From: an uncultured Planctomycetota bacterium
GTDB lineage: Bacteria; Planctomycetota; Planctomycetia; Gemmatales; Gemmataceae
Length of the DNA stretch: 64,000 bases
Direction of reading: 5' to 3'
Assembly: GCA_963784995.1 (NCBI GenBank)
Contig: CAWATZ010000006.1
Span: forward strand, 264,853-328,852
Shown here: piece after piece, positions 1,572-64,000 of the stretch
Numbering within the stretch: the stretch's first letter is position 1
Layout of the letters: each line of letters starts with the position of its first letter
Position numbers and translations under genes: made by a program
Notes under the pieces: model-generated
What the model was told of the DNA's origin: nothing
Seen by the model: the letters and a program-made list of their open reading frames with translations, nothing else
Database searches by the model: none

Positions 1572-3987
1572 ATGCGCAGCGGATCGTGGTTGGTGTTCGC
1601 CCTCCTTCTTTCTCCTGGAGCTTCCGCGGCCCCGGTTGTCGCGGATCTCGACTCCGTCAGCCAGGACGAGCAGACGCTCCGCTCGGCCGGCCTGAGTGTC
1701 GATGGCCCGTCCCTGGTGGAGTTGTTCCGGCAACGGGCCCAGCTGGAAGCCGACCCGGAAGGGCTCAACACCTGGATCAGGCGTCTGAACGACGCGGACC
1801 CTGAAGTGCGTACTCGTGCCGCAAACCGGCTGCTGGGCCGAGGCACGGTCGCCTTGCCCCTGCTGCGTCGCGCGGCCAACGACCTGGGCGAGCCGGAACT
1901 GGCCGGCCGGGCCCAGCACTGCATCGACTTGATCGAAAGGCAATCTCCGCCGACCGTGACGCCGGTCGCCGCCGTTCGCCTGCTTTTGCATCGCAAACCG
2001 GCCGGTGCGGTGGAAGCGCTGCTGGCCTATCTGCCGGCGGCCGAGACTCCCGCCCTGGTGGAGGAAGTGGCCAGTGCCCTGACAGCACTGGCTTATGCTG
2101 ACGACAAACCGCACCCTGCCTTGCTGGCAGCGCTGACCGACAACCTGCCGCTGCGTCGCGCCGTGGCCGCAAGCGCCCTGGCCGGCAAGGAGCATCCCCA
2201 GGCCCGGCAGGCCGTCCACAAGCTGCTGCGTGATCCCAGGCCGCTGGTCCGACTCCGCGTTCGCCCTGGCCCTGACCGAGGCCAACGATCTGGACGGCGT
2301 GCCCGTGCTGATTGATCTGCTGGCTGAGGTGGCCCCCCAACAGCACAAGCCCATCGAGGACCTGCTGAGCCGGCTGGCTGGCGGCTGGACGCCCACCACG
2401 CCCCTGTGTGATGAGGAGGCGGCCCGCCGCATTCGCCGCAGTGCCTGGGCTGGCTGGTGGCAGAACAGCGACGGCCCCGCTCTGCTGGCCCAGGTGCGAC
2501 GCCACGTGCTCAGCGGCAAGGACCAGGCGAAGGCGCTGGCCCTGATCGAGAAGCTGGGGGATGACTCCTTCGAGGTGCGCCAGACCGCCTCCGCGGCGTT
2601 GACCGAGTTCGGCGCCCTGGCCGTGCCGCTGCTGCGTCAGGCCAGCCGCAGCACCGATGCGGAACGGGCCCGGCGGGCCGAGACGTGTTTGCAGGAGATT
2701 GCCGACAAGGGCGGCAAACCGTTGCCGGAACCGGTCTTCCGGCTGCTGAGCCTGCGCAAGCCGGCCGGTGCCGCGGAGGCGTTGCTGGACTATCTGCCTC
2801 ATGCCGAGATCGAACAGCGCAGCGTCGAGGTGCGGCAGGCGCTGGCGGCCCTGGCGGTGCGCGAGGGTCGGCTTGAGCCAGCCCTGGTGCGGGCGCTGGC
2901 AGATCCATTGCCCTTGCGGCGACTGGCCGCTGCCGAGGCCATCCTGGCAGCAGGTGCCCTGGAGCAACGGGACGCCGTGCGCAAGCTGCTGCGGGACGCT
3001 GATCCGCTGGTGCGGCTGCGAACCGCCGTGGCCCTGGCCGTCAAGCGTGATCGGGAAGCAATCCCGGTGCTGATCGAGTCGCTGGCCGAGGAACCTTCCG
3101 ACGCCAGCGCCGAAGCGGAGGGACTGCTGTACCGTCTGGCTGGCCAAGGCGGGCCGAAACTCGAGCAGGCTGAGGGCGCGGCTGGTCGTCGCCAGCGCCG
3201 TGACGCCTGGGCTGCCTGGTGGAAGGAGGCCGGTTCGTTGGTCGATCTGGCCGTTCTGGAGAACCACACGCGCCTGCTGGGGTTCACGCTCCTGGCAATG
3301 GGGGTAAAGGATGGTCAGGTGCTGGAACTGGGCCGGGATGGCAAGCCACGCTGGATCATTACCGGGCTGGCAGCTCCGGTAGACGCCCACGTCCTGCCCG
3401 GAGACCGCGTTCTGATTGCGGAGTACGAGGGGAGCCGTGTGACCGAACGCGATTTCAAGGGCAACATCCTCTGGCAAAAGGATGGGTTGGCAGCCAGTCC
3501 GGTCAACGTGCAGCGTCTGGCCAACGGCAATACCTTTATCGCCACGGAGAACGAGTTGCTTGAGGTCGATCGCGCCGGCAAGACCGTCTGGAGTCAGGCT
3601 TTTCCGAACCTCGATGCGGCGTGCAAATCTCGGGATGGCAGCATCACCTGCCTGGCGTACGACCAATGCATTCGCCTCAGTTCCGCCGGGAAGGAACTGA
3701 AGCGTTTTCCATTCGGCGGCAGGCCGACGTACAAGAGCGCAATCGACGTGTCGGCCGACGGCCGGATCTTGATTGCACTGCACAACCAGGTATCGGAAGT
3801 GGACGGCGAAGGCAAGGTCCTCTGGCAGGCCTCGGCACTGGGAATCGCCACGGCCACGCACTTGCCCAACGGCCACGTGCTCGTTGCCGGCGGCTTCCGG
3901 GAGGTAATCATGGAACTGGATCGGGCGGGCAAGGTCGTCTGGGAACACAAGGCGGGGATGCGGGTCTGGCGGGCCCGGCGGCGCTGA
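1572..3987 (+). CDS. HEAT-repeat + PQQ-like beta-propeller protein, paralog copy 2; +1 frameshift near 2260 (extra C in LVRLRV|ALAL region) relative to copies 3 and 4
   Basis: ATG at 1572 preceded by AGGAG. N-terminal signal peptide MRSGSWLVFALLL. Two ORF-track pieces (1164..2315 and 2230..3987) join collinearly against copy 3. Confidence 0.7.
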
Positions 3988-4064
3988 CCGGCCTGTCCGT
4001 TCCCCCTTGTGGGGGTTACGATAATCCCTGGAAACGCCGTCTCATCCAGTCCAGGAGAGCCTCC

Positions 4065-6536: not shown

Positions 6537-6612
6537 CCGACTTGTCCATTCCGCCGGGCAGGGTTACGATCATCCTTTAGGACCACTCACATCCAGGCCA
6601 GGAGTGCCTCCC

Positions 6613-15790: not shown

Positions 15791-16348
<558 letters not shown>

Positions 16349-19834: not shown

Positions 19835-20837
19835 TTAAAGGATGGCGGACACCCGGGGAAAGATCGTCCGGGCTTCCTCGACAAGGTTCGGGTAACAGCC
19901 CGCATAGCGGGGGCCGAAGTGCATCAGGATCAACTTCTCCACCCGTGCTGCCTTGGCGAACTCGGCCGCGTGGGTCGCCGTCATGTGCCGATGCTGGGCG
20001 GCCTGCTTGGCCTGGGCCTGGGCATAGTAGCTGTCACAGTAGAGCCGCTGGGCCTTCTGGGCCAGGCGGAGCAGACCCGGCTTGACCGCCTCGCTCCAGG
20101 CCGTGTCGGTCACGAAGGCGGTCCGGGCCCCCTTGTGCTGCACGAAATAGTTCTCGGCCAGCACACCCAGCGGGAAGCGGCCGCCGCCGATCTCCAGGAC
20201 CGTGTCTGGCGGCGCATCCTCTCGGAGCAACCGCAGCGCCTCGCTCACCCATTTGCCCGGCCGCAGGTCGCCCTTTTCCAGCCGTTCACCGTCCGGATGC
20301 CAGCCGCCGCGCTCCACCAAAGCATACGCCAGACAGGGAACCGTGTGGTCGCTCGGGGCCGTTTCCACGGTCAGGTCGGCGCTCTCGTAGATCGTCGGAC
20401 CATTCCAGGCCATCTCGGTCACCTCGGGCACCGGGAATTTGCGGCTGCACTCCAGCAAGGCCCACCGCTGCCGATCCGGCGGCAGGACCTCGTGGATCCG
20501 GAAGACGATCTTCTGGAACGGAAAATGCTGGATCTCATAGCTCTTGATCCGCTGATAAATCCGCTCGATGGTCCCGGGAGGTCCGAAAATGTGGAGGGTC
20601 TTGTCCTTGTCAAGGTTCGCGCAGGATGCGGTCGAAGCCGACGAAGTGATCGATGTGGTGATGCGTCAGGAACAGCGCCTGGAGGTCGCCGAGGCGCTGC
20701 GGATCGAGCCGACCGTTCTCGCCGGCGTCGAACAGGAAGGCATCGTCCTTGCCGGGGTAATCGATGAACAGGACCGGATCGCCCGTGGAGCCATTGACCA
20801 GACGGATTTCGGAAATGACGTGAGCCGGGCGGGCCAT
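19835..20837 (-). CDS. MBL-fold metallo-hydrolase (RNase Z-like); 1-nt frameshift near 20605 separates the HxHxDH N-terminus from the C-terminal part
   Basis: N-term ...LFLTHHHIDHFVGFDRILREP; the +1 frame continues ...DKDKTLHIFGPPGTIERIYQRIKSYEIQHFPFQ... into ORF 19835..20458. Confidence 0.55.
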
Positions 20838-21012: not shown

Positions 21013-22419
21013 TCCCCCTGCTCCGCGGGAAAGCGCACGGCCAGCGCCAGCAGCAGCCCCCCAATGACCAGGCTGCCCGCCCCCTGGATCACCAGCACCA
21101 CGGGCGCGCCCCACAGGTCGGCCCAGCGGCCGGCGACCAGCGAGCCCAGCTGCTGGGCGCCGCTGAGCACCATCGACCAGATGCCCATGATCACGCCGCG
21201 GTTGTGGTGCCGGGCCGACAACTGCATCAGCGACTGCCCGGTGGCGAACACCAGCACCAGGCCGCTTCCGACCAGGACGCAGCAGCTCTGGGCCTGGCTC
21301 AGCGTTCGCGACTGGCTCAGTCCCAGTTCGCCCAGCCCCGCCAGGGCCACGCCCACGACCAGAAAGCGCCAGCTCCGCGAGCGGCTCCCCGACGAGGCCA
21401 CCACCAGGGCCGACAGCAAGGCGCCGACGCCAACGGCGCTGAGCAAGAAGCCGTAGTCCGCGGCCCCTCCATCCATCGTCTTGCCGCCGCCGAGGTCCTC
21501 GTGGCTCAGGGCCGGCAGCAGTGTCAGCACCGGCCAGCCAAACAGGGCCAGGAACCCGACCAGGGTCAGCAGCAGGCTGCAAGCCGGGCCGGGAACCCAG
21601 GTAGTGAAAGCCCTCCCGCAGAGGGGCGGCGATCCGCCAGGCGAGGCTACGCGGGCCCTCCAGTCGCTTCGTATAATCCGGAACGGTAATTGATACCGCA
21701 TCAGGCCCAGGCTGGTCCTGCGGTGGCCCCGACAAGGGAGCGTTCAGCGGGGGTAACTCGGGCACCTGCCCGGGTCGGGAAAACCGGGTCCGGTCCATCA
21801 AAGCCAGGGCGATCAGGACGGCGACGTAGCTGACGGCGTTGCTGAGAAAGCACAGGCCCGCTCCCATGGTGGGCAGGGCCAGCGCTCCCAGCGCGGGACC
21901 GAGGGCCCGGGCGGAGTTGAACAGCAGCGAGTTGAGGCCCACGGCGTTGATCAGGTCCTCCGGGCCGACCATGTCATGGACGAACGCCAGCCGGGCCGGC
22001 AGGTCCAGGGCGGTCACCAGGCCGTTGCCCAGCGCCACCAGCAGCAAGTGCCAGGGTTTAACCCAGCCTCCCAGCGTCAGGACGGCCAGGATCAGGGCGA
22101 GGATCAGGAGGATGGCCTGGGAGATGAAGATCACCCACTGCCGCGGCCAGCGGTCGGCCAGGCTGCCGCCCCAGATGCCGAGCAGGAAGGTCGGCAGCAC
22201 CTGGGCCGCCAGCACAGCCCCCGCCCAGAAGGACTTTCCCGTCAGCCGGTAGGCCAGCCAGGTCATGGCCGTGGCCTGCATCCACGTCCCCAAGAGCGAG
22301 ATCAGCTGGCCCAGGAAGTAGAGCCGATAGTTGGAATGCCGCAGGGCGCGAAAGGGACGCCACCACCGGGAGGCCGGCGGACCGGGAGGGGATTCAGGGG
22401 AAGCCGGTGTGTCGGACAC
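21009..22419 (-). CDS. MFS transporter (12-TM, EntS-like); frameshift near 21640
   Basis: N-terminal half is in the 20419..22419 frame, C-terminal half in the 21009..21701 frame. Both halves are MFS-like. Confidence 0.6.
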
Positions 22420-26891: not shown

Positions 26892-29332
26892 TTGTTTGTT
26901 GCCGGAAATGCGCAAGATCCGAAATGGAGAAACGGTGATGGGCCCCACACTCTGCCACGACAAGCCGCGAACGCTGACCAGTGCCTGCGCCGCTGGCGGA
27001 AGAACGCCACGCCAGCGGTGTCTCCAGGGCCCGTTCCCCAATCCCGGGCCGTGCTGACCCGGTCCGTATTCGTCGGCCTGTACCTGGCCGTGCTGGCCTG
27101 GTTTGGTCTGGTGGACGTCTACCGCACCAGCTTCTCCGAGGCCAGCCCGCTCTATTACGGCTACTTCCTGGCCCGCATCCTGTACGTGACCTACCTGGGC
27201 TGGTGTCAGTTCTTCCTGGGCAAACAGCTGCTCTCGTTCTGGCAGCGGCGGCAGGCCGGCCTGAAACTGACCGTGCTGGACGAGTACCTGCTCTGTTTCT
27301 ACAGCGGGGGCGCCCTCCTGGCCGGGGTGACCTTTGTTCTGGGGTTCCTCAACCTGTACTGGTACTGGCTCTTTGTCTGCGGCAGTGTCGGGCTGGTGGT
27401 GCTGTCCTCGGCCGAGTTCGTCCGCACAGGCCGGGTCTGGTGGCAGACGGCCCGGACCGCTCTGCTGGATCGGCGGAGCTGGATCCGGCTGGGGGCCACC
27501 TGGCTGGTCTTTGGCTGCATCCTGATCCTGATGGGGGCCCTGGTCGCTTTCAAGGGACTGTACCCGGGAGGGGGCGGCGATTACTACACGCACTACTTCC
27601 CCTACTTCCGTCACGTGCTGCTTTCTCATGGGTTGTGGCCCAACGACGTCTGGTATCATTTTTTCGTCTCCAAGGGGGCCACGATCACCATCACCAGCAT
27701 GCTGCTGACCGACCCCCTCGCTCCCGAGATGGTCACCTACCTCTACTTCCTGGTCGGCACCATGGCCGTCTGGTCGCTGCTGCGCCGCTGGGCCAACAAC
27801 CGCATCATTCCCGGTCTGGGCATGGCGGCTTGCCTGGGGGCCTTGCTCTGGACGCCGAACCGGATGTTTGGTGAATGGGGTCTGTTCCAGAAACATCACG
27901 AGTTCACGGCCAGCTTGCTGCTGTCGCTGGTGTGGCTGGTGGTGGTCTGCCCGGATGCCCGGGGCCCGCGCGGAAGGCGTGGGCGTGCTTCCTGGCCCTG
28001 TTCGTGCTGCACTGTGTGCTGCTGGCGCCGACCGTGTTTCCCCTGGTCTTTGCCCTGCTCGGGCTGGCCGCGCTGCTGGCCGTCCGCAAGCGGATCTGGG
28101 GCCTCTTCGCGGCCTCGGCGGCCGGGCTGGCCTGCGCCACGGCGGTCTGCGCCGGGCTGCTGACGCTCAATTACTGCTGCACCGGGCTGGCCGAGGTCAC
28201 GCCCATGCGCCTGTTCTGGAAATACGCCGACCAGGAACGCTTCAGCAAGTGGGTGAGCCCCTACTTGATGGTGCTGCTCCTGGAAGGTTCCTCGCCCAAC
28301 ATGGGAGACATTCAGCTTGTCGAGCACGAGACGCTGTCGCGGTGGGACTATCTGCGGATGCTGACCCGGATGCACGTGATTCACTCCGTGTTCCCGGACG
28401 CCGCCGAGGAGGTCCCCTGGTGTCTCTTGCTGGTGCTGGGCCTGGTCGCCTTGCAGTTCTGGTCCGGAAAAACAGTCGCCCTCGATCTGGATCGGCCGGG
28501 CGTTCCCATCGTCGGCCTGTTTGCCGCGGCCATCCTCCTCAGTCAGCTGGTGACCCAGCCGGTCTCGGTCTTCCGGTACTTCTCCTTCATGGTCTTCCTG
28601 GTTGTGCTGCTGGGCCTTGGAGTGTGGCTCGTGTTCTTCCATCTCCTCCCCAGCCGGAAACTGGTCTGGCTCACCTCGTACGTGATGCCGGCCCTGCTGA
28701 CCTGCCTGGTCGCCTACCAGAGCATTGTGGCGGTGCCCAACAGGGACCGGCGCGACATGCTGCGCCTGGTCGCGGGGCAGGAGAGCCTGGAGGAGGCCTA
28801 CCGGAAACACGATGTCACCAGCGCTGCTCCCGTCGCGATCCGGGAGGTCGTGGGACGGCAGGCGCGCGTCTACTCGTTCAACGTCAACAATTACTGCATG
28901 ACGCCGGACTGCGAACTGGAGTCGTTTGTGTCGTTCGCTCTGCATCAGGACTGGCACACGGTCCTGTTTGAGCCGGCCGAGCAGGCCCGAGCCGCTCTGC
29001 AGAAGCAGGGACTCAACTATTTCCTGATCGATCTGAACAAGGACGTGATCGACGTTTTGCAGTATTCGCCTTTGTTCCAGCCCGAGAACGTCGGCAAGTA
29101 CCTGGAGGTCCGCTGGCACAGGGGCAGCACCTACCTGCTGACCTGGCCCGGACCTGACACCCAGCCTCTTTCCGAAGAGTTCCTGACGATTTGGGCGCAC
29201 GTGGAGTTCTGGAACCCTTGTGATCTTGGCCCCCTCTATGAGGTGGTTCGCACGATCTACGAGCAGAACAAGGGCAAACCGTTCCCGATTGTCCGTGATC
29301 CCTCCTTGCCGCACCCGATTGGCTGGCAGTGA
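26892..29332 (+). CDS. Large polytopic membrane protein (paralog 1 of 2, ~800 aa; many N-terminal TM helices, GGGGDYYTHYFPYF motif, soluble C-terminal domain); frameshift near 27965, start uncertain
   Basis: Collinear with 31371..33770 across two ORF-track frames (26892..28163 and 27875..29332). Possible GT-C / YfhO-like fold (inference). Confidence 0.5.
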
Positions 29333-41385: not shown

Positions 41386-44300
41386 ATGCCGACCGCATCC
41401 CTCCTTCGCAGCCACCGTTTTCCGCTCGCCCTGCTGCTGGTCGTCCTGACCACTGCGATTCCCGCCGCTGCCCAGGAGAAACTGCCGCCGAACGTCCGGG
41501 TGATTCGCCTGGAAGTGCAGCCGACCACGATCACTCTCACCACGCCGTTCCAGTACAGCCAGCTGCTGGTGACCGGCGTGCTGCCATCCGGTGAGCGCAT
41601 CGACCTGACGCGGCTGGCGAAGATCCAGCCGCCCGCGAAGGTGGCCAGGGTCACTCCCACCGGCCAGGTCCGGCCCATCGCCGACGGCAAGGGCGCCCTC
41701 AGCGTCACCTGGGAGGACAAGATTGCCATCGTGGACGTCAAGGTGGAGGGACTGAAGCAGAAGCCGGAGGTCAGCTTTGTCCGGGACGTGATGCCGGCCC
41801 TGTCGCGCATGGGCTGCAATGCCGGCACCTGCCACGGGGCGGCCGAGGGCAAGAACGGCTTCAAGCTGTCGCTGCGCGGCTACGATCCGCTGGGCGATCA
41901 CCGCAGCCTGACCGACGACCTGGAAGGCCGGCGCTTCAACCGCGTCGCTCCGGAAAAGAGCCTGATGCTGCTCAAGACCTCCGGTGCCATTCCCCACGTC
42001 GGCGGCGTCGTCACCCAGCCGGGCGAGCCTTACTACGAGCTGCTCCAGCTCTGGATCGCCCAGGGCGTCAAGCTGGACGTGAACAGCACCCGCGTCAGCA
42101 AGATCGACAATCCAGCCGCGCTCGGTCAGCATCCCGCTGCCGGGGATGAAGCAGCAGATGGCCGTGGTCGCCACCTTCGCCAACGGCAGCGTCCGCGACG
42201 TGACCTCCGAGGCCTTCATCGACAGCAGCAACACCGAGGTGGCCACGGTGGACCGCAGCGGCACCGTGACGGCCGTCCGCCGCGGCGAGGCCACCATCAT
42301 GGTCCGCTACGAGGGGAACTACGCGGCCAGCACCCTCTTTGTGATGGGCGACCGCAGCGGCTTTGTCTGGAAGCCGGTCGAGGGCCAAGGCGTCATCGAC
42401 TCGCTGGTCTACGACAAGCTGAAACAGGTCAAGGTGCTGCCCAGCGACCTCTGCACCGACGCCGAGTTCGTCCGCCGGGTCTATCTCGACCTGACCGGTC
42501 TGCCGCCGCAGCCCGAACAGGTCCGGGCCTTCCTGCACGACACCCGCCCGAGCCGGTTCAAGCGCGACGAACTGATCGACAAGCTGATCGGCAGCCCCGA
42601 TTTCATCGAGCACTGGACCAACAAGTGGGCCGACCTGCTTCAGGTGAATCGCAAGTTCCTGGGCGACAAGGGCGCGACCGCTTTTCGCGGCTGGATTCGC
42701 AAGTCCGTCGCCGAGAACATGCCCTACGACAAGTTCGCCCGCGCCATCCTGACGGCCAGCGGCTCCAACGTGGACAATCCACCGGCCAGCTATTTCAAGG
42801 TGCTGCGCGAGCCCGACGCGGTCATGGAGAACACCACCCAGCTGTTCCTGGCGGTGCGCTTCAACTGCAACAAGTGCCACGATCATCCCTTCGAGCGCTG
42901 GACCCAGGACCAGTATTACCACCTGGCCGCCTTCTTCGCCCAGGTCGGCCGGGCCGAGGACCCGCGCTACAAGGGCCAGAAGCTCGGCGGCACCGCGGTC
43001 GAGGGGGCCAAGCCGCTGGTGGAGGTGATTTCCGACCTCAAGGGCGGCGACGTGAAGCACGCCCGCACCGGGGCCGTCTCGGCACCGGTCTTCCCCTACA
43101 AGCACAACGACCTGGCCCCCGCCACCGCGACCCGGCGCGAGCAGGTCGCCCACTGGATCACCAGCACGGAGAACGTCTACTTCGCTCGCAGTTACGTCAA
43201 CCGCCTCTGGAGCTACCTGCTGGGCGTCGGCCTGATCGAGCCGGTCGATGACATCCGGGCGGGCAACCCGCCGAGCAACCCGAAACTGCTCGACTTCCTC
43301 ACCGACGAGTTCGTCAAGAACGGCTTCAACACCCGGCACGTGATCCAGATGATCTGCAAGTCGCGCGTCTACCAGCATTCGGTGGTGGCCAACGACTGGA
43401 ACAAGGACGACGACATCAACTACGCCCGCGCCCTGCCGCGCCGGCTGTCGGCCGAGGTGCTTTTCGATTCGATCCACAGCGTCACCGGCTCGGTAAGCCG
43501 GCTTCCTGGCCTGCCGGCCGGCAGCCGGGCCGCCCAGATGCTCGACTCCACTGTCGATGCCCCCGGCGGCTTCTTCAACCTGTTCGGCAAGCCGCCGCGC
43601 GAGAGCGCCTGTGAATGCGAACGCAGCACCAGCCTGATGCTGGGGCCGGTGCTGAACCTGGTCAATGGCCCCATCCTGGCCGATGCGGTCCGCGATCCGA
43701 GCAACCGCATTGCCAGGGTGCTGGCCGCCGAGAAGAACGACACCAGGGTGGTCGAGGAACTGTACCTGGCCGCCCTGTGCCGGCCGCCGACCCCCGGCGA
43801 GCTGAAAGCCGCCCTGGAGACGCTGAAGGCGGGTGAGGCCGACTTCGATGAGATGCTGGCGGAAGGCAAACGGCGTCAGGAGGCGCTGAATGCCTACGAG
43901 AAGCAGCTCAACGAACGGCAGGCCAAGTGGGAGACCGCCATGAAGCAGGCACCGGTGTGGGTCCCGGTTGGGATTACCAAGGCCGTTGCCAAGGGGGCTG
44001 GCGTGACCCTGAAAACGCAGCCGGACGGCTCCGTGCTGGCCAGCGGCGCCAACCCCGCTAACGACACCTATACCGTGACGGCGACCACTCCGCTGAAGGG
44101 AATCACCGCCATTCGCCTGGAGGCGCTGCCCGACCCGAGCCTGCCCGCCAAGGGCCCAGGCCGGTCCGGCGGCGGTAACTTCGTGCTGAATTATTTCAAG
44201 GTGGACGCCAGGGAGGCAGGGGCGGCGGGAGCGGGCCGGCCGCTGGCCCTGTTCAACGCCTCGGCGACCTTTGCCCAGGACAAATTCCCGGCCGCCAACG

Positions 44301-44904: not shown

Positions 44905-47156
44905 ATGGTGTCTCCCGTGATCTGTCTCGTTGCCAACGACCTGGCCCATCTGATCCGCAACGGCGGCGTTGGCACGTACTTCTGGCTGCTGGCGCATCTC
45001 CTGGCCCGCAAGGGCCTTCCCGTCTTCCTCCTCTACGCCAACGACCCCATCGAGAACCCCTCGGCCCTTCCGGACGTCCGCCGGCGACTGGAGAAAGCGG
45101 GCATCGGCTTCGCCACCCTGGCGGACTTTCCCGTTCCGCCGCACTGGCATCTTCCCACCCACGGCAGCAACCCGCTCCTGCAGCGCAGTGAGCGGGTCCG
45201 CTTCGTGCTGGAGCATCTGCAGCAGCGTCATCGCTTTGACCTGATCGAGTTTGCCGACTGGGGCGCGTGTGGTTTTCGCTCCGTCCAGGCCCGGCGGACC
45301 GGGCTGGCGTTCGCGGACGCTGCGCATCCTGGTCCGGCTGCACGGCTCCAGCCAGTGGGGACGGGCCGGCAACCTCCAGGGACTCACCAGCAAGGAGGAC
45401 CTGCGCCTCGATTTCGCCGAGCAGCACGCCTTCGATCACGCCGACGTTCAGCGCAGCCCCACCCGCTACGTGCTTGAGCAGGCCCGCGCCAGTGGCTGGG
45501 TGGTCCGAGCCGACGCCCAGGTGGATGGCTATCCCTTTCCCGACCGGCCTGACAGGCCGGGCGACTCCTCGGGAGAAGTCCGGGAGATCGTGTTCTTCGG
45601 CCGGCTGGAAGTGCGCAAGGGACTGCTGCTGTTCCTGGAGGCGTGCCGGCACCTGACACCGCTGCCGCTCGCTTTTGTCGGCAAGGACACCGTGTTGCCG
45701 GACGGCCGACGTGCTTCGGCCGTGATCCGGCAAGCGCTGCCGGGCCGGCGCGTTTCCCTTCACACCAATCTCGACCACGCGCAGGCCCTGGCCTATCTGC
45801 GGCAGCCCGGCCGGCTGGCCGTGCTGCCCTCGCTGGCCGACAACCTCCCCTTCGCCTTGATCGAGTGCGGCACCCAGGGCATCCCGTTCCTCGCATCTCA
45901 CGTTGGCGGCATTCCCGAACTGCTGGCCGATCCGGACTTGCAGCGGCAGTTGCTTTTCCAGCCGACTGCACCGGACCTGCTGCGCTGTCTGCGCTCCTAC
46001 CTCGACACCAGCGCGAGCCAGCGCCGATGCGGGACGGAGGAACTGTACCAGCGCCTTGACCCGGGATGGAACAACGACCGGCTGGTTGAGGGATACGCGA
46101 TGGTTAGCCGCGACGCGGAGCGCAGCGCAGCGGAGCGCGGAGAGGCCCCACCGAACGGAGCCTCTCCGCGCTCCGCTGCGCTGCGCTCCGCGTCGCGGCT
46201 AACGAACGGTGTTCCCGAACGGATTGGGCGAACCCACACACTGGTGAGCGTCGTCGTCCCCCACTTCAACCTGCCTGATTACCTCCCGGAGGCGTTGGCG
46301 TCGCTGGCCTGCCAGTCTTACCCTCATCTGGAGATCCTCGTCGTCGATGACGGCTCCACCTGTCCGCGGGCCTTGCAAGTCGTGGCCGAGCAGGAACGCC
46401 TTTATCCGCACTTCCGCTTTCTGCGAACCGGCAACGCCGGTCCGGGAGCCGCCCGCAACGCCGGCCTGGCCGAGGCCCGGGGCGATTTTGTGCTGATGTT
46501 CGACGCGGACAACGTCGCCCTGCCACACTTGGTCGAAACCCTGGTGCGCGGGCTGGAGCGTCTGCCCGAGGTGGCGGCCCTGACCTGTCCGGTCCTGGGC
46601 GTCTCCGATTCTCCCAACCCGGCCGGCCGGCGACCGGTCCTGGTCAATGCCTTCGCGGGCGGCCCGGTCTTGCTCGCCTGCCTGGAGAACGTCTTCGGCG
46701 ACAGCACCGCCCTGTTCCGGGCCGATGCCCTGCGTGCCGTCGGCGGCTTTGACACGGATCGCTCCACTCCCTGGGAGGACTGGCTGACCTACCTCCGACT
46801 TGATCCAGGCCGGTTTCCAGATCGAAACGGTCCCGACCTTCCTGTTCCATTACCGCGTTCGCCGGGGTAGCTACACGGCCGGGCTGATCCAGGGACCGGC
46901 GGACCGAGATCGGCTCCTGCAAATCCTGCTGCAACGCGGCTTCTCCGGCCCGGACTTGCCGCCGGGGGTCCGCCCGGCCAGCCTCTGGGCCATCGCGGTC
47001 CAGTTCGGGCTGCTCAGCGACCGCCAGAACACACTCCGCCATCGCCTGCTGGAGCAGATCAACAAACGACTGCGGCGAATGCCCCGGTTGCACGCCGGAC
47101 TTAAACGGTTGCTCCAGCTGCTGCTCGGGCTGGTGCGCTGGTCGGTGCGCGGATAA
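44905..47156 (+). CDS. Bifunctional glycosyltransferase (N-terminal GT4 / GT1-fold, C-terminal GT2); two apparent frameshifts (~45305, ~46795) and an in-frame 99-bp palindrome in the interdomain linker
   Basis: GT4 N-domain GGVGTYFWLLAHLLARKG and C-domain EIVFFGRLEVRKG. GT2 ...VSVVVPHFNLPDYLPEALASLACQSYPHLEILVVDDGS... Confidence 0.55.
46104..46202. repeat. 99-bp perfect palindrome (43-bp arms, 13-nt loop CCCACCGAACGGA) inside the GT4-GT2 coding sequence, translated in-frame as 33 aa (...SRDAERSAAERGEAPPNGASPRSAALRSASRLT...)
   Basis: TTAGCCGCGACGCGGAGCGCAGCGCAGCGGAGCGCGGAGAGGC (46104-46146) is the exact reverse complement of 46160-46202. Length is divisible by 3. Confidence 0.7.
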
Positions 47157-48615: not shown

Positions 48616-48660
48616 GCCCAAGCCTGGCCTTCGGCGGCCGAGAGCGCACTGATTCAGGGA

Positions 48661-49852: not shown

Positions 49853-52800
49853 ATGTTTCAAACCAACTTCGAGATGCGAATGGCCGGCCGGGTGCGTGAG
49901 CTGCTGACCGCACACACGCCGGAAGAAGCGGCCCGGCTAGCTTTGGGCCGGGTGCGCAAGGCGTTGACCGACTGGAAGCCGGGGCTGGTCTTCGACCCGG
50001 CCCGGCTGCGCACCGTGCTGGCCACGCCGCTGAATGGTCCTGTCCTGGAGATTGAGCGCGCATTTCTCCCTGGGCTGGCTGGCCTGGCTGGCCGACGATC
50101 TGTCCGAGGCCGCGACCCTGCTCACCGAGGCGTTCAACCGCTGTCCCAGGGACAGCAACAATGATTGGTTGCCGCTGACCGCCTACTGGCGTGCCCGGGT
50201 CCGCCTGCTGCTGCAACAGCCCGAAGCGCTCGCCGACTACGAGGCGGTGCTGCGCACGCTCAAGGGGTCGCCGCAGGGCACGGCCTGGTTTGTCGATCTG
50301 CTCTGGCGGGCGGGCCGGGTCGATCGGGCCGAGCAGGTCTGGAAGTCGGTGCGGACCAACAAGAAGGTGACCGCCTGCGAAGAGGGACCGCTGCTGGAGG
50401 CTCGCTCCATGCTGCGCCGCGGCGAGCTGGGACCGGCCGAGAAGGCGCTGACCGAGGCCGCTCCGACCAGCGGCGTCCTTCAGGTGGAGCGGTGCCTGCT
50501 CCTGGCCTGGATCAGTACAGCCCAGAAACAGCCGCAGAAGGTCGCCGAGTGGCTGGAACAGGCCGGCCAGGGCCCTTACCCGGTCCGGGCCCGGGAACGC
50601 TGGGCCCGACTGCTCCAGTGGCGCGGCCAGGCGACGGGAGTCGCCGACCTTGCCGAGCTGCAATCTCCGCTGCTGCGCGACCTGACCCGGGGACAGCAGC
50701 TGCGCCTGGAAGGTAAGCCGGACGAGGCGGTCGCCGCCCTGCAGCAGGCCCGGGGCAATCCGCTGATCGAGCCGTTCGCGCGCTATGCCCTGACCTGCCT
50801 GGGCAAGGACGATCCGGCCGCGGTCCTGGCCAGCCAGCCGGGGCTGTTCCTGGCCCAGCGCTGCCGGGCTCGGCAGACGCTGGAGCGCTTCCGGACCCGG
50901 CAAGCCAGTCCGACTGAGCTGCTCGATACGCTGCACAGCGCCAGCGCCAGCAAGTTCAGCGACAGCGGCGTCGAGCATTTCCGCCAGCTGGCCCTGCTGC
51001 TCCAGCGCCGCGAACCGCCCGTGGACGAACTCCACAGCATCCGGGAGTCTGCCGCCGAGGATCCGGTCCGGCGACGCAACCTGTTCCGGGCCGCCCTGGA
51101 GACGGCCGTGCGCCGATTGCCGGCACCGGCCCTGCGGCAATTGCTTCAGGAATGGGCCCGGTTGCCCTGGCTGGAAGGCGAGCCCGAGCTGCGCGCCCTG
51201 CTGGCGCGTCCCTTGCTCCGGCTGATCTTGCAGCAGGGATCGGCCGAGGAATCGGAACGAGCCCTCCTGGAACGATTGCATCCGGAGGAACCGTTGCTCG
51301 CCCTGCTCCCGGACACAAGCCCGGAGCGCAAGCGACGGGACAGCCCCGAACGTCCCAGCGCCGGCGCTTTGGGCTTGTTGCAGGCCGCTCACTCCCTGGC
51401 CGCAAAGCCCGATCTCGATGGGGTGGAAGCGGAAGCCTGGCGCGAGCAGGTGCGTCAGCTCCGCGAATCCGGTCGCTGGAAGGGATTGGGCCAGGCCCTG
51501 CTCTTGCAGGAGGCCGCCCGCCGTGGCGACGTGCCGGCCGTGGCCGGCCTGCTGGAAGAGGTCGATCCCTGGCGTGCGTTCCGTCAGGGGCCGCCCCGGT
51601 TCGTGCTGCGCTCCCTGGTCGCGCTCGTTTCCCGCCAGCCGGGGCAGGGGGCCTGGAAGCGATCCCTGCCGCAGTGGCTGCAATTGTGGAACCTGGCCGC
51701 CCTCGGAGCGGAGGGACAGACCCTGGCGGCCCAGGCGGGCCTGTCCTCCGCGGCGACCGCTTCCTCGGAGCCGCCCGCCGGAGTGCCGGCCGTGCCCTGG
51801 TTCCTCCATCTGGCCGCTCGCGCCCTGGCACCGAAGAGCGATAACCCCACCGAGGCCCTCGCCTTTGTCCGCCGCGCCCTGGCTGCCGATCCGGAACTGG
51901 CCAGCGTGTCCGATGCGACCGTCGTCCGGGAAGCTCTGCCGGAGCTGGAACGTCGTGCGCTGGCTCGGTCCCTGACAGCGCTGACCCAACCCGAGGGGCA
52001 ATCAGCTCTCCCGGCCGGTCTGCTGGTCGATGCCGTCGATCTGCTGCGCTCCCTCTCCGAGGGACAGACCCTGCTGGACGCCCTCCAGCAAGGGAACCCC
52101 GAACAAGCTCGCGCGCTGCTGCAAGGCTTGCTCCAGAAGCCGGAGCTTCCGACCCGGCTGCTGCATCACCTGGCATTGCTGGAACTGCGTGCTGCCCAGG
52201 CACTGGAAGAGAAAGACCAGACCGACCAGGCCGATCCGCACTGGCGGCTGTCGTGGCAGGGCTGGTTGCGTTTCCTGGGCGAGCCCGGCCCGGAGGAAGA
52301 TCGCTCCGGGCTGCTGGACTTCTTGCTGGGTCTGCACCGCAGCCGGGTCAACGCCCTGCTGGCTCGCGGCGAGGTGGACCGCGCCCGCCGGCACTGGAAC
52401 ATTGTGCAGGAATTGCCGGGACTGCGCCGCCGCGATCAGCGAGGCCCTCGGTGCCGACCTGGGTCAGCGTCTGGCCCGCTTCCGGGACGACCTGGCCGGC
52501 GAGTACCTGGTCACCACGCGGGAGGCGATGCGCTATGGCAACGTCGCCGAGGGGATGCACGCCGACTACGACAAGGGCCTGTCCTACCTGCGCCGGCTGC
52601 TGAGCCTGGACAAGGACAACGTCCGGCTGCTGACCGCCCTGATGGAGGTGTGCGGCGAGTATTTCCTCGACCTGTACCACGCCGGCAGTCCGCCCGCGCT
52701 GATCGAGCAGGTGGAGCGCTTCTTACCCTTTGCCCTGCAGCTGGCCCGGCTGATTGAGGACCAGCCCAGCGCTCTGGCGGCCCGCGCCGCCCTGGCCGAG

Positions 52801-52941
52801 TATTGCAAGTTCCGCGGCTTCATCACCCGCGATCGGGAGCAGAAGAAGGCCCTGTACCGCGATGCCCTGCGCTTCAACCCGGCCAACGAGAACGTGCGTG
52901 ACCTGCTGGCCGCCCTGGAAGCCCCCGCCGAGGAGGAGTGA
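49853..52941 (+). CDS. Large (~1000 aa) alpha-helical TPR-like / hypothetical protein; two apparent frameshifts (~50060, ~52430)
   Basis: Three ORF-track pieces (49853..50164, 50034..52757, 52030..52941) read collinearly. Leu/Ala/Arg-rich helical repeats. Confidence 0.45.
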
Positions 52942-55174: not shown

Positions 55175-56754
55175 TCAGTAGTCCTGTGCGGAGAAGCGCC
55201 AGCAGGCGAGACCCAGGAAGAGGAGGATGTACAGCGAGGTGACCAGACAACTTTCGGCCCAGTTGAACATGCTGTACCGCTTCTCCAGCCCACTCCGCTC
55301 CGCGTCCGGCAGCGTTCGCTCCTGCAGGGCCCTGTCGCCCAGCCAGTCCAGGTCCAGGTAGTGCGGCAAGGCGGCGTGGGCGACAGTGGCCGTGTTGTAG
55401 ATCCATTCGGGAGCGAGTTTCCCCTTGGCCTCCGAGGTGCTGCTGGCGAAGTAGTAGCCCCAGCCCATGCCAAACAGCAGACCCCACATCAGCACACAGC
55501 CGACGATGCAAACGATCGGGCTGCGCGTCAGCACTGCCAGGAGGGTGGACAGGGCGTAGAACAGGGCAAACTCGAACGTCAAGATCGGCAGCGCATACAG
55601 GAAGGCCGGTTCCCAGACGCTTGTCCGCAACCCCAGGACCACCCACAGGCCCACAACCAGCACAGCCGTGTTGAGGAACATGAAGGTCAGACCACCGACG
55701 TATTTGTAGATGAGCAGGCCCGGCCGAGTCAGTGGCTTGGACAGCAGCAGGTCGATGGTCCCCTTGCGGAGCATGTTCGGTACGTAGAAGGCGGTGATGA
55801 TGCAGCCGAGCAACATGATCGCGGGCGCCCCAAGCCTGGAGATGATCCATCTGCTGATGTTCGTGACCATGTCGCCCGGCAAGACCGAACTGCCCAGCGG
55901 AATCCCGCCAAAGAGAAGGCTCGCCTTGTGAGGCCAGGCCAGGTAGGTGGCCCCCCGAGGAGTAACCTTGACCAGGAATTTGTGAACCTCGCCTTCAACT
56001 TCCTTGGTAGTGATCCGGACATCCTGGCCTTCCTTGACCGGCACCCGGGTCGTGATCTTGATGGTGCGCTCGTTGGGCGGCAGATCAAGCATTCGCACCT
56101 CCGTGACGCGCCAGTTGCCCTGGCTTTCCAGCTGTTGCTTGATGAATCGCTCCTGGTCGTCCTTGCTGAGCGATTGCGTCTCCTGGGCCAATCGCTTGAC
56201 CAGGTAGGCCTGGAACTCCTCCAGGAGCTGATTCTGCTGCGCCACCGCAGGGTATTTCTGTTTGAGACGCTGGATTTCCTGTTCCAGGTCTCCCTGGAGC
56301 TGGCGGTGCGCGTCTTCCGGCCAGTCTTGCTGCGCTTTTCCCGCTCTTCCTCGTCCTTGAAGTCCTGCATCAGGACGACGATCCAGCTGCCCTGGGGCAC
56401 CAGGTCGCGCGACTCGATGACGAACTGATACTCGGCCGACCAGGGCCGAGACTGGTCTTCTGGCTCCTTGACGTCCTCGACGGTGTAATGGGTGAACGAG
56501 GGGGTGGCCTTGGTCCGGCCAACGATTGGCAAATCGATGGTCTCCGAGCCGTCGAAAAAGCGGGTGGTGATGTTCTGGAAGCCCTCGTCCGACGGGTTGG
56601 GCGTCAACGTCACGGTCGCCATGAGCAAGATGGCCAGCAAGGAAATGCCGGCGACGACAAAGAAGACCATGTTGTCGATGGTCTCGCGCAGCGAATCTCG
56701 AAGGATGGCCAGGAACTTCATGAGCAGATGCCCTTTTGCACTGGGGAGCCTCAC
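55175..56754 (-). CDS. ABC-2-type transporter permease; frameshift near 56340
   Basis: N-terminal TM in the 55729..56754 frame, large extracytoplasmic loop and C-terminal TMs in the 55175..56791 frame. ATGA overlap with the upstream ATPase gene. Confidence 0.6.
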
Positions 56755-57734
56755 TCGACCGGTTCGACGTTCGCGATGTCCTCGCTGGCATCCCGGCGGC
56801 GCTTGCGGCGGGGCTTGCGGTCCACGCCTGGCTCGACTGCCTCCACCGTCGCGATGAACAGGTCTTCCAGCGATTGCCGTTTCTCGACCAGATGGCGCAA
56901 GTGCAAGCCCTGCTGCAGGATCAACTGCACCACCGGATCGATCGACTGACCGTCCAGCAAGGTGATTTCCCAGTTATCCCCGTCCCGGCTTACCTGGTGT
57001 CCCAGGGCCTTGACCGCGTTCACCGGCAGCAGTTCCTCCTTGGCCAAACCGATCTCGTACAGCCCGGACTGGCGCGTCAGCGTGTTGACGTCGCCCTGGC
57101 GGATCAGTTCGCCCTGCTGGAGGATCGCGACCTGATCGCAGATCAGCTCGACCTCGCCCAGCAGGTGGGAATTGATGAAGACCGTCTTGTTCTCCTGCTT
57201 GAGCGTTTCCAGCAGGTCGCGGATCTCGCGCCGGCCGACCGGATCGACGCCATCGGTCGGCTCATCGAGGAAGATCACCTCCGGCTCGTGCATCAGCGCC
57301 TGGGCAATGCCCAGCCGCTGCTTCATCCCCTTGGAGTAAGTACGGATCTTGGAGTGCATCCGCTTCTTCAGCCCCACCAGCTCCAGAATGGGCGGAATGC
57401 GCTTGAGCCGTTCCCGGCGCGGCACCTCCAGCAAGGTGCCGTAAAAGTCGAGCAGGCTGGCCCCGCTGTGGTAGTCGGGAAAGCGATGGTCCTCGGGCAA
57501 GTAGCCCACCCGCTTGCGGACGCTGCTGGTGCCGGCGGGGTGGCCGAGCAGCTCGGCGCTGCCCTGGGTCAGCCGGGTGATGCCCAGCAGGATCTTGATG
57601 AGCGTGGTCTTGCCGGCGCCGTTCTGGCCCAGCAAGCCGAAGACCTGGCCGCGCTCGACCGTCAGGGACAGGCCCTTGAGGGCCTCGATCCGGCCATAGT
57701 GCTTGACCAGGTTGTTGGTGACGACAACGGACAC
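56751..57734 (-). CDS. ABC transporter ATP-binding protein
   Basis: Walker A GQNGAGKTT, signature SKGMKQRLGIA, Walker B IFLDEPT. Confidence 0.85.
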   Translation of the reverse strand: MSVVVTNNLVKHYGRIEALKGLSLTVERGQVFGLLGQNGAGKTTLIKILLGITRLTQGSAELLGHPAGTSSVRKRVGYLPEDHRFPDYHSGASLLDFYGTLLEVPRRERLKRIPPILELVGLKKRMHSKIRTYSKGMKQRLGIAQALMHEPEVIFLDEPTDGVDPVGRREIRDLLETLKQENKTVFINSHLLGEVELICDQVAILQQGELIRQGDVNTLTRQSGLYEIGLAKEELLPVNAVKALGHQVSRDGDNWEITLLDGQSIDPVVQLILQQGLHLRHLVEKRQSLEDLFIATVEAVEPGVDRKPRRKRRRDASEDIANVEPVE

Positions 57735-61309: not shown

Positions 61310-61598
61310 TACGGATTCTGGGGAAGTGCCCCAAGAGGACCAGACGAGAAGGCGTGTGCTGCTGGCGTGGTGGCGGTGTCGCTTTTTTGTCATCCGTGGG
61401 GCAAGCACAGTCACGCAGCGGCATTTCCTGGGACACCGCCAGGCAAAAAGCGCCGTTGGCGGTGTGGCATCCTCAGCGGTGGTGTCTCGGCGGCCCCTCC
61501 CTCCCCAAAATCCGTGACCGTCAGCTTTCTTGCAATGTGCTGCAGCCCAGGCTGCAACAGATCGCCGAGCAACTGGCCCATTTGTCCAGCGGGTGCGG

Positions 61599-64000
61599 TC
61601 ACGGCAGCGGGACGTCGTGCAGCTCGAACGGCACTTCGACCCGCACGCGCTCGAACCGATAGAGGCGGAGCTGGACCGGTCCCTCCAAAGGGGTCGGGAG
61701 CGACAACGGCAAGATGCCGCGCCACTCCAATCGTTCCGAAGCGGGGCGCAGCCGGGCGAGGGCCGGCCAGGGCACCTGGAGCAGCGAGGTCGCCTGGGGA
61801 GTCGTTGCCAGCCAGGCCAGATCCTCCGGCAGTGGCTCACTCAGCAGCGATGCTACTGGGGGAGGGAGGACGTAGTACTGCGAGTGACCTCGGCTGTCAA
61901 TGACTTCCACGCCCTCCTGGTTTCCGGGACGCCAGCCCGGCGGGCCGCTCAACCGGTACTGCACCACCGGCCGCCCAGCGCGAGGCGTTGACATGGCTAC
62001 CACGGTCAGCCGATGCCCTTGCGGGCCGTGGAAGGTCTGTCCGCGGGCAGCGGTGAGGTCCGGCACCGTCACCAGGTCCTGCCGCCAGGCCATCACTTCC
62101 ACCGGCAAGACACCCTTGAGGACCTTGATCCGATCGTTACGCCGGTTGGGTCCATTTAACTGGAGATTGGTCCATCCCATCAGGGAGATCCCGCTCGTCC
62201 CGGGATAGAACACAGGAGGAACGGCACGATGGAGCGACACTCCGTCCAGGCCGCGCACGTCCAGCACCTGCCCCACGGTGGAGGTGGAAAGGATCCCCCG
62301 GTGGGGTTCCAGGAGCAAACCCAGGCCCAGTTGCAGGTTCTCGACAGTCCGCGGCGTCCGCTCGGTGAGGGTGAGGAACCGATTGAGGTTGGCCATCTCC
62401 AGGTGGACACCAAAGGGGCCCGCATAATAACGGATGCTTGCGAGGCCGGGGCCCCTGGTGGCCCACCCGCAGGAGGGGCGTCTGCCGCTCGGGGCGGGTA
62501 GCTCAGGTCGCCGGCCTCGCAGATGCGGTCCAGGGCCTCCCACACCGAGACGTCCTCCAGCTCCAGGCTGATGCGCTTCGGCACCATGCCAGCCACCGGG
62601 GGCACGTAGGTCATGGGAATCCGCGACTGCTCGGCCAGGGCCCGGATGGCGTCGGCGGGGAAAGCCTCCTTCAGTTGCAGGCGGACTCGCGTCGGGACGA
62701 GCAGCTCCTGGGCCGTGATCCGGTCCAGCACGGTTTCGGCCTGGGAGCGTCCTTTCCCCTGTGCCTCGCCACCGCCGTCCTCAGGGCCGGGACCGCCGGG
62801 GGGCCCACCGCCACCAGGGCGTCGGCGGCCGCTTTGCGCACCCTGGCGTCGGTCACGCTCAGCTGCCGGACCCAGCCGGCGATTTCCGCGGCGGTCGCGG
62901 TGCGGCGCTTCGGGGCCGGCGAGAGCTTGATGACCGGGGGAGTCGCAGGGCCCGGTCGAACCGGGGAGGGCTCGACCGGCATCGGCTTGCGCGGCGCCTG
63001 GACGATGGTCACGGGCGCGGGCGGCCGGCTATCGAGCAGCGTGCTGGCAAGGAGGTCGGCCTTCGGCAAGGTTGCGTCCCAATCCAGGCCGATCGCTGCC
63101 AGCTCGCGGTGGACCAGATCCAGGTCCCAGAGCGTGATCAGATGTTCGCTGCCGGCGATGGAAAGGTGCCGGCCGGACGGGTCGAAGGCCAGACTGTGGA
63201 CGTCGGTGTTTTGCGGCAGGGTGGCCAGCGGTTGGAGCGTGCCGCTGTCCCAGAGAACGACCCGGCGGTCCCGGCCTCCGGAAGCCAGCAGCCGGCCATC
63301 CGGACTGAACGCCACCGTCGTGACCGTATTGGTGTGGGCCTTCTCCCGCACGTGCCTGGTTTCCAGTTCCGGCAGGGTCAGGATGCTCAGCGCTCCGTTC
63401 CGCCCTCCCACCGCCAGGCTGCTCTCTCCTGGAGCGACGGCCAGGGAGCCGACGCCACCCGGGACCACGGCCTCCTGGACGGTCTGGCTAGAAGCCAGGT
63501 TGCGGAGGAGGATTCGGCCTCCCCGGCTCAAACCTAATTCGATTCCCACAAGCAGCTGCTCGCCCTCGCCCAGGAAGGCAAGGCCCTCAACCGGGGCGGG
63601 CTCCTTCCACTGCTGCACGGGTTGCCCGGTGCTGGTGTTCCACAGGAAGGTGGAACCGTTACCGGTTGCCGCGGCCAGCAGCTTGCCCTTCTTGTCAAAG
63701 GCCAGCGCGCTCACCTGGTTTTGCGGACCAACCAGCTGGCGGCTGCCGGCCAGCGTGACCGCCTGGTTGGCGGCGGTCTTCACTTCGCGCAACTCGACGG
63801 CATAATCGCGACCGGAGGAGTTCGTAAAGGAGCCCACTCCCACGGCCAGCAGATCGCCGGTCGGAGCAAACGCCACCCGGGTGATGGGATTGTTCCGCGC
63901 TCCGTCCCAGCGAAACAGGGATCGGCCGGTCTGGAGGTCCCACAGCAGGACGCTCCTGTCTGAGGACCCGGAAGCCAGCAGGGGCCGGGACGGATGGGAG
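61599..64000 (-). CDS. Large WD40 + HEAT-like multidomain protein (5' end beyond the window); two apparent frameshifts (~62440, ~62750)
   Basis: Pieces 62671..63876, 62180..62731 and 61599..62543 are collinear. WD40 repeats continue to the window edge. Confidence 0.5.

Follow-up and report, generated by a model that had tools for sequence, protein, structure and literature searches.

Single-base frame breaks in ten genes of a planctomycete contig as probable consensus errors in the deposited assembly

Genes and frame breaks in the window

The window, a stretch of 64,000 nt, has a high coding density and carries ten protein genes whose reading frame switches once or twice on the same strand (Table 1). 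The families named for these genes in the initial annotation (MFS, RNase Z-like, ABC-2 permease, glycosyltransferases, DUF1553 and WD40) were correct. Genuine decay is also present, as remnants of group II introns and a truncated intI. The latter, which lies outside the set of ten genes, has a structural truncation, as had been stated. The window has no tRNA or rRNA genes, hence there were no RNA genes to check for indels.

A codon log-odds HMM, self-trained on the window, detected a same-strand frame switch at all 13 positions that the initial annotation had listed. Three coordinates were refined, from 21640 to about 21575-21597, from 42130 to 42109/42110, and from 56340 to about 56290-56305. 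The switches fall in ten genes and not in at least 12 as counted earlier, since three of the genes (GT4-GT2 glycosyltransferase, TPR protein, and WD40 protein) have two apiece. Roughly one in four genes of the region is affected. Nine of the 13 shifts are +1 (extra base) and four are -1 (missing base), and DNA alignments show a single gap column at six of the breaks. Collinear homology spanning the break, from in-window paralogs, full-length homologs, or full-length family models, verified ten switches; codon statistics support the other three (about 31050, 62490, and 62775).

We compared this density with contigs of relatives (L066 and L068 from Logan, and JGI contigs), which were taken to be short-read assemblies. 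These contigs contain 0-1 same-strand switches per about 12 kb, each an ordinary gene boundary, so the switch density in the window exceeds chance. Three additional candidate lesions were rejected. At 52941, a TGA is followed by GGAG..ATG, and at 48615, a stop is followed by GGGAG..ATG at 48667. At 60000, a TAA precedes the next start (GTG, 60023), with a permitted window of just 8 nt. Each of the three is an ordinary gene boundary.

Table 1. Positions of the 13 frame breaks and the genes that contain them
Site	Position	Strand	Change	Gene (extent)	Placement
J1	2260..2262	+	1-nt insertion, CGCGTT[C]GCCC	HEAT+PQQ paralog B (1572-3987)	DNA alignment
J2	about 20612..20621	-	+1 shift; context GAACCTTGAC	RNase Z-like MBL (19835-20837)	permitted window 20610-20665
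J3	about 21575..21597	-	+1 shift	MFS transporter (21009-22419)	change-point analysis
J4	27959..27968	+	-1 shift, base missing in CCCGGGGCCCGCG	g4, ~780-800-aa membrane protein, function not assigned (26892/27018-29332)	DNA alignment
J5	about 31040..31065	+	+1 shift near 3' end	PMT_2-like glycosyltransferase (29410-31297)	three-frame translation
J6	42109..42110	+	1-nt insertion, GAC[A]ATCC (A to AA)	Big_2/PSCyt2/PSD1 (DUF1549/DUF1553) (41386-44731)	three-way DNA alignment
J7	45321	+	1-nt insertion, GACGC[T]GCGC	GT4-GT2 fusion glycosyltransferase (44905-47156)	DNA alignment
J8	46800..46801	+	second 1-nt insertion, GAC[T]TGATCC (T to TT)	GT4-GT2, as J7	DNA alignment
J9	about 50056..50062	+	+1 shift, extra base in GAGCGCGCAT	TPR-containing, ~1030 aa (49853-52941)	DNA alignment
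J10	about 52418..52438	+	second +1 shift	TPR-containing, as J9	exact placement ambiguous in DNA alignment
J11	about 56290..56305	-	-1 shift, base missing in ACGCGCACCGCC	ABC-2 permease (55175-56721)	reverse tblastn
J12	about 62475..62500	-	-1 shift	WD40 protein (61599 to beyond 64000); shift in the C-terminal half	sliding codon-score profile
J13	about 62767..62784	-	-1 shift	WD40 protein, as J12	codon-score profile

Homology and codon evidence at the breaks

Paralogs within the window bridge two of the breaks. Against HEAT+PQQ paralog B, its paralogs C and D each split into two collinear tblastn matches that meet at 2260/2261, and B has one extra base relative to both. After repair, residues 1-804 of B align in one frame to C (4065-6533) and residues 1-795 to D (6613-9057). 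For g4, the in-window paralog P0121 (31371-33770) aligns in two collinear frames that meet at the break, and nine full-length homologs do likewise.

Family models join the pieces of two other genes. The RNase Z-like pieces match Lactamase_B positions 10-65 and Lactamase_B_2 positions 128-200. After repair, one stretch of the protein (residues 10-329) matches profile positions 6-335 of 345 in NCBIfam NF002558 (ribonuclease Z) at 235.7 bits, and the Lactamase_B_2 score of the protein rises to 55.4 bits. The MFS pieces match MFS_3 positions 3-192 and 232-396; when repaired, they form one MFS_1 stretch over positions 2-342 of 347 with 99.2 bits.

Orthologs from relatives cover the next six breaks. 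The intact PSD1 ortholog in L066 aligns over residues 1-241 in frame 1 and 239-1119 in frame 2, and the window gene carries a single extra A. The GT4-GT2 ortholog in the same contig aligns over residues 1-139 and 140-614 in different frames and over residues 603-702 in a third. Many full-length homologs cover the repaired GT4-GT2 query over 97-100%. Homologs of the TPR protein, 1018-1046 aa long, align collinearly across three frames; an intact ortholog in L068 served for the DNA alignment at the first TPR break, and at the second the C-terminal ~170 residues align in the third frame (52399-52902) in 9/9 homologs tested. The ABC-2 permease gene lies directly downstream of an ABC ATPase gene (56751-57734). 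Residues 12-526 of the repaired permease match, in a single frame, the ORF downstream of the orthologous ATPase in >20 JGI loci, with identities of 54% in L117 and 51% in L077.

The remaining breaks, J5, J12, and J13, are without homolog support because the metagenome scan and the NCBIfam and Pfam searches gave nothing: the C-terminal half of the WD40 gene had no relative in the scan, and g5, g11, and g12 had no NCBIfam or Pfam match across their junctions. At J12, the sliding codon-score profile passes cleanly from phase 2 into phase 1, in which the next ~300 codons are free of stops. At J13, it changes from phase 0 to phase 2; the middle segment of 94 codons matches the true-frame mean, with 0.55 per codon. 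At J5, a protein-like tail ending at 31297 appears in frame +1 only; its codon score of -0.01 lies between the true-frame (0.54) and off-frame (-0.83) values. J5 is the weakest of the 13 sites, since no homolog was obtained.

Relatives, sequence context, and gene integrity

The initial annotation had proposed comparison with orthologs, and in L066, L068, and the JGI loci the genes are intact. L066 encodes an uninterrupted 1119-aa PSD1 protein and a 719-aa GT4-GT2 protein, and L068 encodes an uninterrupted 1046-aa TPR protein. Across these contigs and the JGI loci, which carry the permease as one ORF, six of the ten genes or families are represented by intact single ORFs. For g4, about 10 full-length homologs were found. 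For P0123, a g4 homolog, no DNA was recovered and no PMT_2 neighbor was seen. The relatives compared share 43-85% amino acid identity and are not the same species; in the protein database, the closest non-self relative is 73% identical. In a RecQ-based scan of genome contigs, no relative exceeded 55% amino acid identity, and the scan gave no synteny that could help with the frameshifted genes.

A second long-contig assembly of relatives, ERZ25039590 (ENA), contains frame breaks of its own. Its contigs contig_76922 and contig_51119 carry two breaks in PSD1, two in GT4-GT2, and one in a g4 homolog. All five are single-base insertions outside mononucleotide runs, at other positions than in the window. 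One ERZ25039590 locus has 18 same-strand frame switches in 21.7 kb, denser than the window. The source of the window and ERZ25039590 may share a pipeline. In the public record, the gene calls are the fragments. P0002 (45269-46867), exactly the middle GT4-GT2 fragment, and P0121 are exact products of the window from one 1,441,126-bp NCBI/ENA contig, and the breaks therefore stand in that record. A 1.44-Mb contig is of the kind that long reads produce.

The sequence context differs between the two types of break. No mononucleotide run holds any of the five base-placed insertions (J1, J6, J7, J8, and J9), and the support intervals of all nine insertion-type sites are free of runs of ≥4 nt. For the deletion-type sites, the support intervals of J4 and J12 hold a G4 or C4 run, and those of J11 and J13 hold G/C runs of 2-3 nt only. 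The earlier statement that several shifts lie in G/C runs thus holds for the four deletion-type sites, in or near short runs, and fails for the nine insertion-type sites. The breaks in the window are not concentrated in homopolymers, the classical Nanopore signature. This pattern lowers the case for classical Nanopore homopolymer error but leaves that for consensus error as it was, since low coverage is also known to give random indels. A link to CCWGG or GATC motifs, as in methylation-linked basecalling errors, was considered, but a count of three of four sites is not convincing: CCWGG occurs every 112 nt, and 14% of random positions fall no more than 6 nt from one. Spontaneous indels in bacteria are associated with runs and biased toward deletions. 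The excess of nine insertions over four deletions, outside runs, therefore does not look mutational.

The affected genes are otherwise well preserved. None of the ten repaired ORFs contains an internal stop, and none of the genes carries a truncation or IS insertion, though three have been hit twice. With 2.95% of substitutions giving a stop and an indel:substitution ratio of 0.05-0.2, 13 disabling lesions would include no nonsense change with a probability of 0.001-0.14. The mixed lesion spectrum expected of genuine pseudogenes is thus not what we see. Identity to orthologs or paralogs is equal on both sides of the breaks (79.3/79.1%, 77/72/75%, 70/64/74%, and 69.6/71.1%), and in-frame codon bias is kept in most downstream segments; two segments fall well below the true-frame mean of 0.54, the C-terminal one of g12 (0.11) and the tail at J5. 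We found no relaxed constraint downstream of the lesions, a result that a very recent event would also give. The pieces of each gene are collinear and have no independent start signals.

Origin of the breaks

Based on these results, we consider the 13 frame breaks to be consensus indel errors in the deposited assembly, in genes that are themselves intact, with a probability of roughly 0.85. Each break involves a single base, and the pieces on either side belong collinearly to one conserved gene (by homology at 10 of 13). The initial annotation had likewise favored assembly indel errors over pseudogenes, and that preference is supported by the intact orthologs, the one-base-only lesions, the kept downstream identity, and the breaks in ERZ25039590. 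Long reads with insufficient coverage or polishing most likely underlie the source assembly, and the extra and missing bases would be absent from the real DNA. The consensus step would have added one base at nine sites and dropped one at four, and gene callers would then have split each intact gene into two or three fragments. Most probably, all ten are intact, functional genes in the organism. Consensus indels of long-read assemblies are known to fragment gene calls, above all at coverage under about 40x (PMC9262707; PMC8103633), and many annotated bacterial pseudogenes are assembly artefacts (PMC11017572).

A mixture, in which most breaks are consensus errors and one or a few are genuine frameshifts or collapsed-population indel polymorphisms, is unlikely. 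The natural candidates would be the redundant genes, paralog B and g4, which adjoin intact paralogs, or the deletion-type sites, which lie in or close to short G/C runs that allow real slippage. The merging of strains in metagenome consensus sequences also counts for this explanation. Against it, no site stands apart, as downstream coding signal and identity are kept at all of them.

It is very unlikely that all the frameshifts are real and record recent, widespread pseudogenisation in which single-base indels inactivated about a quarter of the region's genes. The breaks do stand in the deposited sequence, real degraded elements (the truncated intI and the intron fragments) occur in the region, inactivation of paralog B and g4 would be tolerable next to their intact paralogs, and a very recent event would leave downstream conservation unchanged. 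These points are outweighed by ten genes, three of them hit twice, without any nonsense change, truncation, or IS insertion, by an insertion excess outside runs that is unlike spontaneous mutation, and by the high coding density. Breaks also occur in operonic genes present in single copy, the ABC-2 permease among them, and the ERZ25039590 relative has independent breaks in the same genes while L066, L068, and the JGI loci have none.

Highly unlikely as well is that this planctomycete lineage and its relatives genuinely carry the one-base insertions in their DNA, for example through an insertion-prone replication or repair defect or as tolerated frameshifts rescued by recoding; a quarter of the genes would then be truly interrupted yet look selectively maintained. 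Programmed recoding, by which ribosomal frameshifting or transcriptional slippage would yield full-length proteins from the sequence as written, is extremely improbable: nothing specific favors it beyond collinear pieces without independent starts, inspection found no shared slippery motif in the unrelated contexts, both +1 and -1 directions occur, and orthologs and paralogs lack a shift at matching positions, so the sites are not conserved.

We therefore regard the consensus errors as a data-quality issue rather than biology, with nothing pointing to a new biological mechanism. Their consequences are practical. About a quarter of the genes in the stretch are deposited as fragments; the public call P0002, for example, has 533 aa in place of an expected ~750-aa GT4-GT2 enzyme. 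The record distorts pseudogene counts, completeness estimates, pan-genome comparisons, and protein-family clustering, and the related ERZ25039590 contigs do the same. Findings in the window that rely on ORF boundaries need frame-corrected genes.

Among known systems, genomes under reductive evolution (Mycobacterium leprae and recent host-restricted symbionts) show mixed lesions, lower coding density, and lost constraint. The window resembles them in its large fraction of interrupted genes but differs in having one-base indels only and a preserved coding signal. Programmed sites, as in prfB, dnaX, and IS3-family transposases, have conserved slippery motifs at positions conserved in orthologs; there too, two overlapping frames encode one protein, whereas the window has neither a slippery motif nor a conserved position. 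Spurious pseudogenes in public bacterial assemblies (Cooley and Wright 2024, PMC11017572) share a frameshift count raised by assembler, platform, and coverage rather than by evolution, although that study also found artefactual internal stops, of which the window has none. The explanation preferred here corresponds to the consensus indels of long-read (Nanopore or PacBio) assemblies, known from IDEEL-type protein truncation (Sereika et al. 2022, PMC9262707) and from frameshift-aware correction of Nanopore MAGs (Cusco et al. 2021, PMC8103633). Unlike the textbook signature of deletions in long homopolymers, 9 of the 13 breaks in the window are insertion-type, the base-placed ones outside runs. 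Shared with such artefacts are the collinear splitting of conserved genes, a density of roughly one break per 5 kb, a very long contig, intact genes in accurate assemblies of relatives, and another long-contig assembly with the same defect at other sites.

Frame breaks and their gene context

The window has a GC content of 60–71%. Its gene content is typical for Planctomycetota, with PSCyt1, PSCyt2 and PSD1 domains, numerous WD40, HEAT and TPR proteins, and a Ser/Thr kinase. A scan of 185,579 species genomes found the closest RecQ relatives in Planctomycetota and Phycisphaerae MAGs at only 54–55% amino acid identity, which left no close genome for comparison. Positions 45269–46867 and 31371–33767 translate exactly to the public protein records P0002 and P0121, respectively, both encoded on one 1,441,126-bp NCBI/ENA contig. 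The window thus belongs to a deposited assembly, whose public gene calls are the split open reading frames (ORFs) seen here.

Fifteen of the window's long ORFs served to train a codon log-odds model, whose six-frame scores were smoothed by a Viterbi pass. At each coordinate listed in the initial annotation, which had proposed probable indel errors in at least 12 genes, this codon HMM recovered a frame switch on the same strand. The sites exist, but a few were displaced by 20–55 nt, and all 13 fall in only ten genes. Because the stop-to-stop ORFs flanking each break overlap, one ±1 shift suffices to join them (+1 at nine sites, –1 at four). Homology spans the breaks except at J5, J12 and J13. 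Positions 52941, 60000 and 48615 were rejected as further lesions, being ordinary gene boundaries.

Frame breaks and other features of the window
Feature	Position	Strand	Detail
HEAT-repeat + PQQ-like beta-propeller paralog A (tandem)	<1-1494	+
Paralog B	1572-3987	+
J1, paralog B	2260-2262	+	paralogs C, D match B in two frames joining at 2260/2261
Paralog C	4065-6536	+
Paralog D	6613-9087	+
Second group II intron D1-D4 fragment, isolated	13337-13457	-
Group II intron domain V/VI	16264-16338	-	Rfam RF00029, 70.1 bits, above gathering score
Group II intron D1-D4	16870-16983	-	RF02012, 29.6 bits, sub-threshold; collinear, ~530 nt upstream of domain V/VI match
Integron-type integrase	17276-18150	+	N-terminal SAM-like domain duplicated; catalytic domain to Pfam 68/172
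J2, RNase Z-like MBL	~20612-20621	-	pieces match N- and C-terminal parts of MBL models
J3, MFS transporter	~21575-21597	-	MFS_3 positions 3-192 and 232-396 in separate frames
J4, membrane protein g4	27959-27968	+	sits in CCCGGGGCCCGCG
J6, PSD1 gene	42109/10	+	one extra base, A to AA (three-way DNA alignment)
J7, GT4-GT2 gene	45321	+	one extra base (three-way DNA alignment)
J8, GT4-GT2 gene	46800/1	+	one extra base, T to TT (three-way DNA alignment)
J9, TPR gene	~50056-50062	+	placed by intact Logan ortholog (L068)
J10, TPR gene	~52418-52438	+	placed by intact Logan ortholog (L068)
J11, ABC-2 permease	~56290-56305	-	placed by reverse comparison

DNA alignment of paralog B with C and D resolved J1 as a single extra base, CGCGTT[C]GCCC, and repaired B aligned end to end with C and with D in one frame each. 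Paralogs A–D (1–9087) share 73–79% protein identity and locally ~90% DNA identity, with a duplication unit that takes in the 78-nt spacers. After repair, residues 10–329 of the J2 product matched the NCBIfam ribonuclease Z model NF002558 in one stretch (235.7 bits), and the J3 product gave one MFS_1 stretch (2–342 of 347). At J4, an in-window paralog (31371–33770, 70% identical) and nine homologs of 709–827 aa align in two frames joining at the break. These two ~800-aa polytopic membrane paralogs bracket a PMT_2-like glycosyltransferase (26892–33770, + strand). Their family has no Pfam model, and its homologs found elsewhere lie in polysaccharide-biosynthesis-like clusters.

A 12-kb Logan contig of a relative (L066, SRR21361998) has the window's WD40–PSD1–GT4-GT2 order, with uninterrupted PSD1 and GT4-GT2 ORFs of 1119 and 719 aa that match two and three frames of the window, respectively. 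Exhaustive searching with the middle TPR fragment recovered homologs of ~1000–1046 aa, whose first ~70 and last ~170 residues fall outside that fragment; tblastn mapped these outer ends to the window's two other frames. A C39-like peptidase gene (start 48667) and a small ORF (start 52944), which are unrelated, have a common start context, GGAG..GTGACCATG (48650–48669 and 52927–52946). For the permease, the adjacent ABC ATPase retrieved 80 loci in a metagenome scan, and at more than 20 of these repaired residues 12–526 matched one unbroken ORF just downstream. J5 (~31050, in the glycosyltransferase) and J12 and J13 (~62490 and ~62775, both in a WD40 gene) were identified by three-frame translation, by sliding codon scores that change phase cleanly and by the lack of stops. 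J5 is the weakest-supported of the 13 sites.

Consensus error or gene decay

In Logan and JGI contigs, which are presumably de Bruijn assemblies of short reads, all homologs and orthologs that were retrieved are intact. Two contigs of relatives in ENA assembly ERZ25039590 (contig_76922 and contig_51119, names in Flye assembler style) carried their own breaks at other positions in the same genes as the window: PSD1 and GT4-GT2 hold two each, and the g4 homolog one. All five that were base-resolved are single-base insertions outside mononucleotide runs. An ERZ25039590 alcohol dehydrogenase is also split, into ADH_N and ADH_zinc_N calls. The same HMM found 18 same-strand switches in 21.7 kb of the contig_76922 locus (L067), none in the Logan contigs L066 and L068, and 0–1 per ~12 kb in JGI loci, each at the ATPase–permease boundary. 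This assembly is frameshifted far more heavily than the window. In L067 (1–21680), the gene calls across 11.7–15.5 kb are a series of 59–266-aa fragments. In the second ERZ25039590 locus, L069 (823–1856 and 10001–12392), breaks divide both an ADH gene and the homolog of g4.

In bacteria, indels that arise spontaneously are associated with runs and biased towards deletion. The window has nine insertions and four deletions, and the base-placed insertions lie outside mononucleotide runs, making or lengthening at most a dinucleotide. No nonsense codon or larger lesion was found in the ten affected genes, though three hold two breaks each. The probability of no nonsense among 13 disabling lesions was 0.001–0.14, with 2.95% of substitutions creating a stop and plausible indel:substitution ratios. 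Identity to orthologs was equal on either side of the breaks, and in-frame codon bias was mostly kept downstream of them.

The 13 breaks are real in the sequence, but from these comparisons we judge them, at a probability of about 0.85, to be consensus errors and hence a technical artefact. The intact Logan/JGI orthologs, independent ERZ25039590 breaks, lesion spectrum, insertion excess and kept constraint all indirectly favor the consensus-error reading of the initial annotation. A mixture in which a few breaks are genuine, particularly in paralog B and g4, where intact copies lie alongside, is improbable. Mass pseudogenization is more doubtful still, with a lesion spectrum unlike decay, preserved constraint and separately arisen breaks in the long-contig assembly of a relative. 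Programmed recoding can practically be dismissed, as inspection showed no common slippery motif and shift positions are not conserved. Long-read consensus indels are known to fragment gene calls, notably below ~40x coverage (PMC9262707; PMC8103633), and many of the pseudogenes annotated in bacteria are artefacts of assembly (PMC11017572). Frame-corrected genes are needed for any other inference from this contig. The biological interest of the breaks is low.

Integrase remnant and group II intron traces

The intI truncation, singled out initially as structural, is genuine: the catalytic domain stops at ~nt 18150, and its remainder was not found in any frame downstream. Upstream of the integrase, the 13.2–17.3 kb stretch has lower GC (~60%), is weakly coding and contains small minus-strand ORFs; on these features, it could represent a decayed cassette array. 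ORFs near the group II intron matches showed no RT/maturase domain. Together with the domain V/VI and D1–D4 matches, this suggests that a group II intron that is degraded or lacks an ORF adjoins the integrase remnant.

Signature of the probable errors

Four of the ten base-resolved insertions in the window and relatives come directly after CGAC or GCGA (window 42103–42110 and 46794–46801; L067 ~6920 and ~7170). This post hoc pattern in a small sample could hint at context-dependent basecalling error or reflect chance. The initial annotation had placed several shifts in G/C runs. This rationale holds for the deletion-type sites (J4 in CCCGGGGCCC, J12 near C4 runs, J13 in CCCGGCCC and J11 in CGCACCGCC), but not for the base-placed insertions. 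The error signature in the window thus differs from classical Nanopore homopolymer deletion and more closely resembles insertions arising at random in a low-depth consensus.
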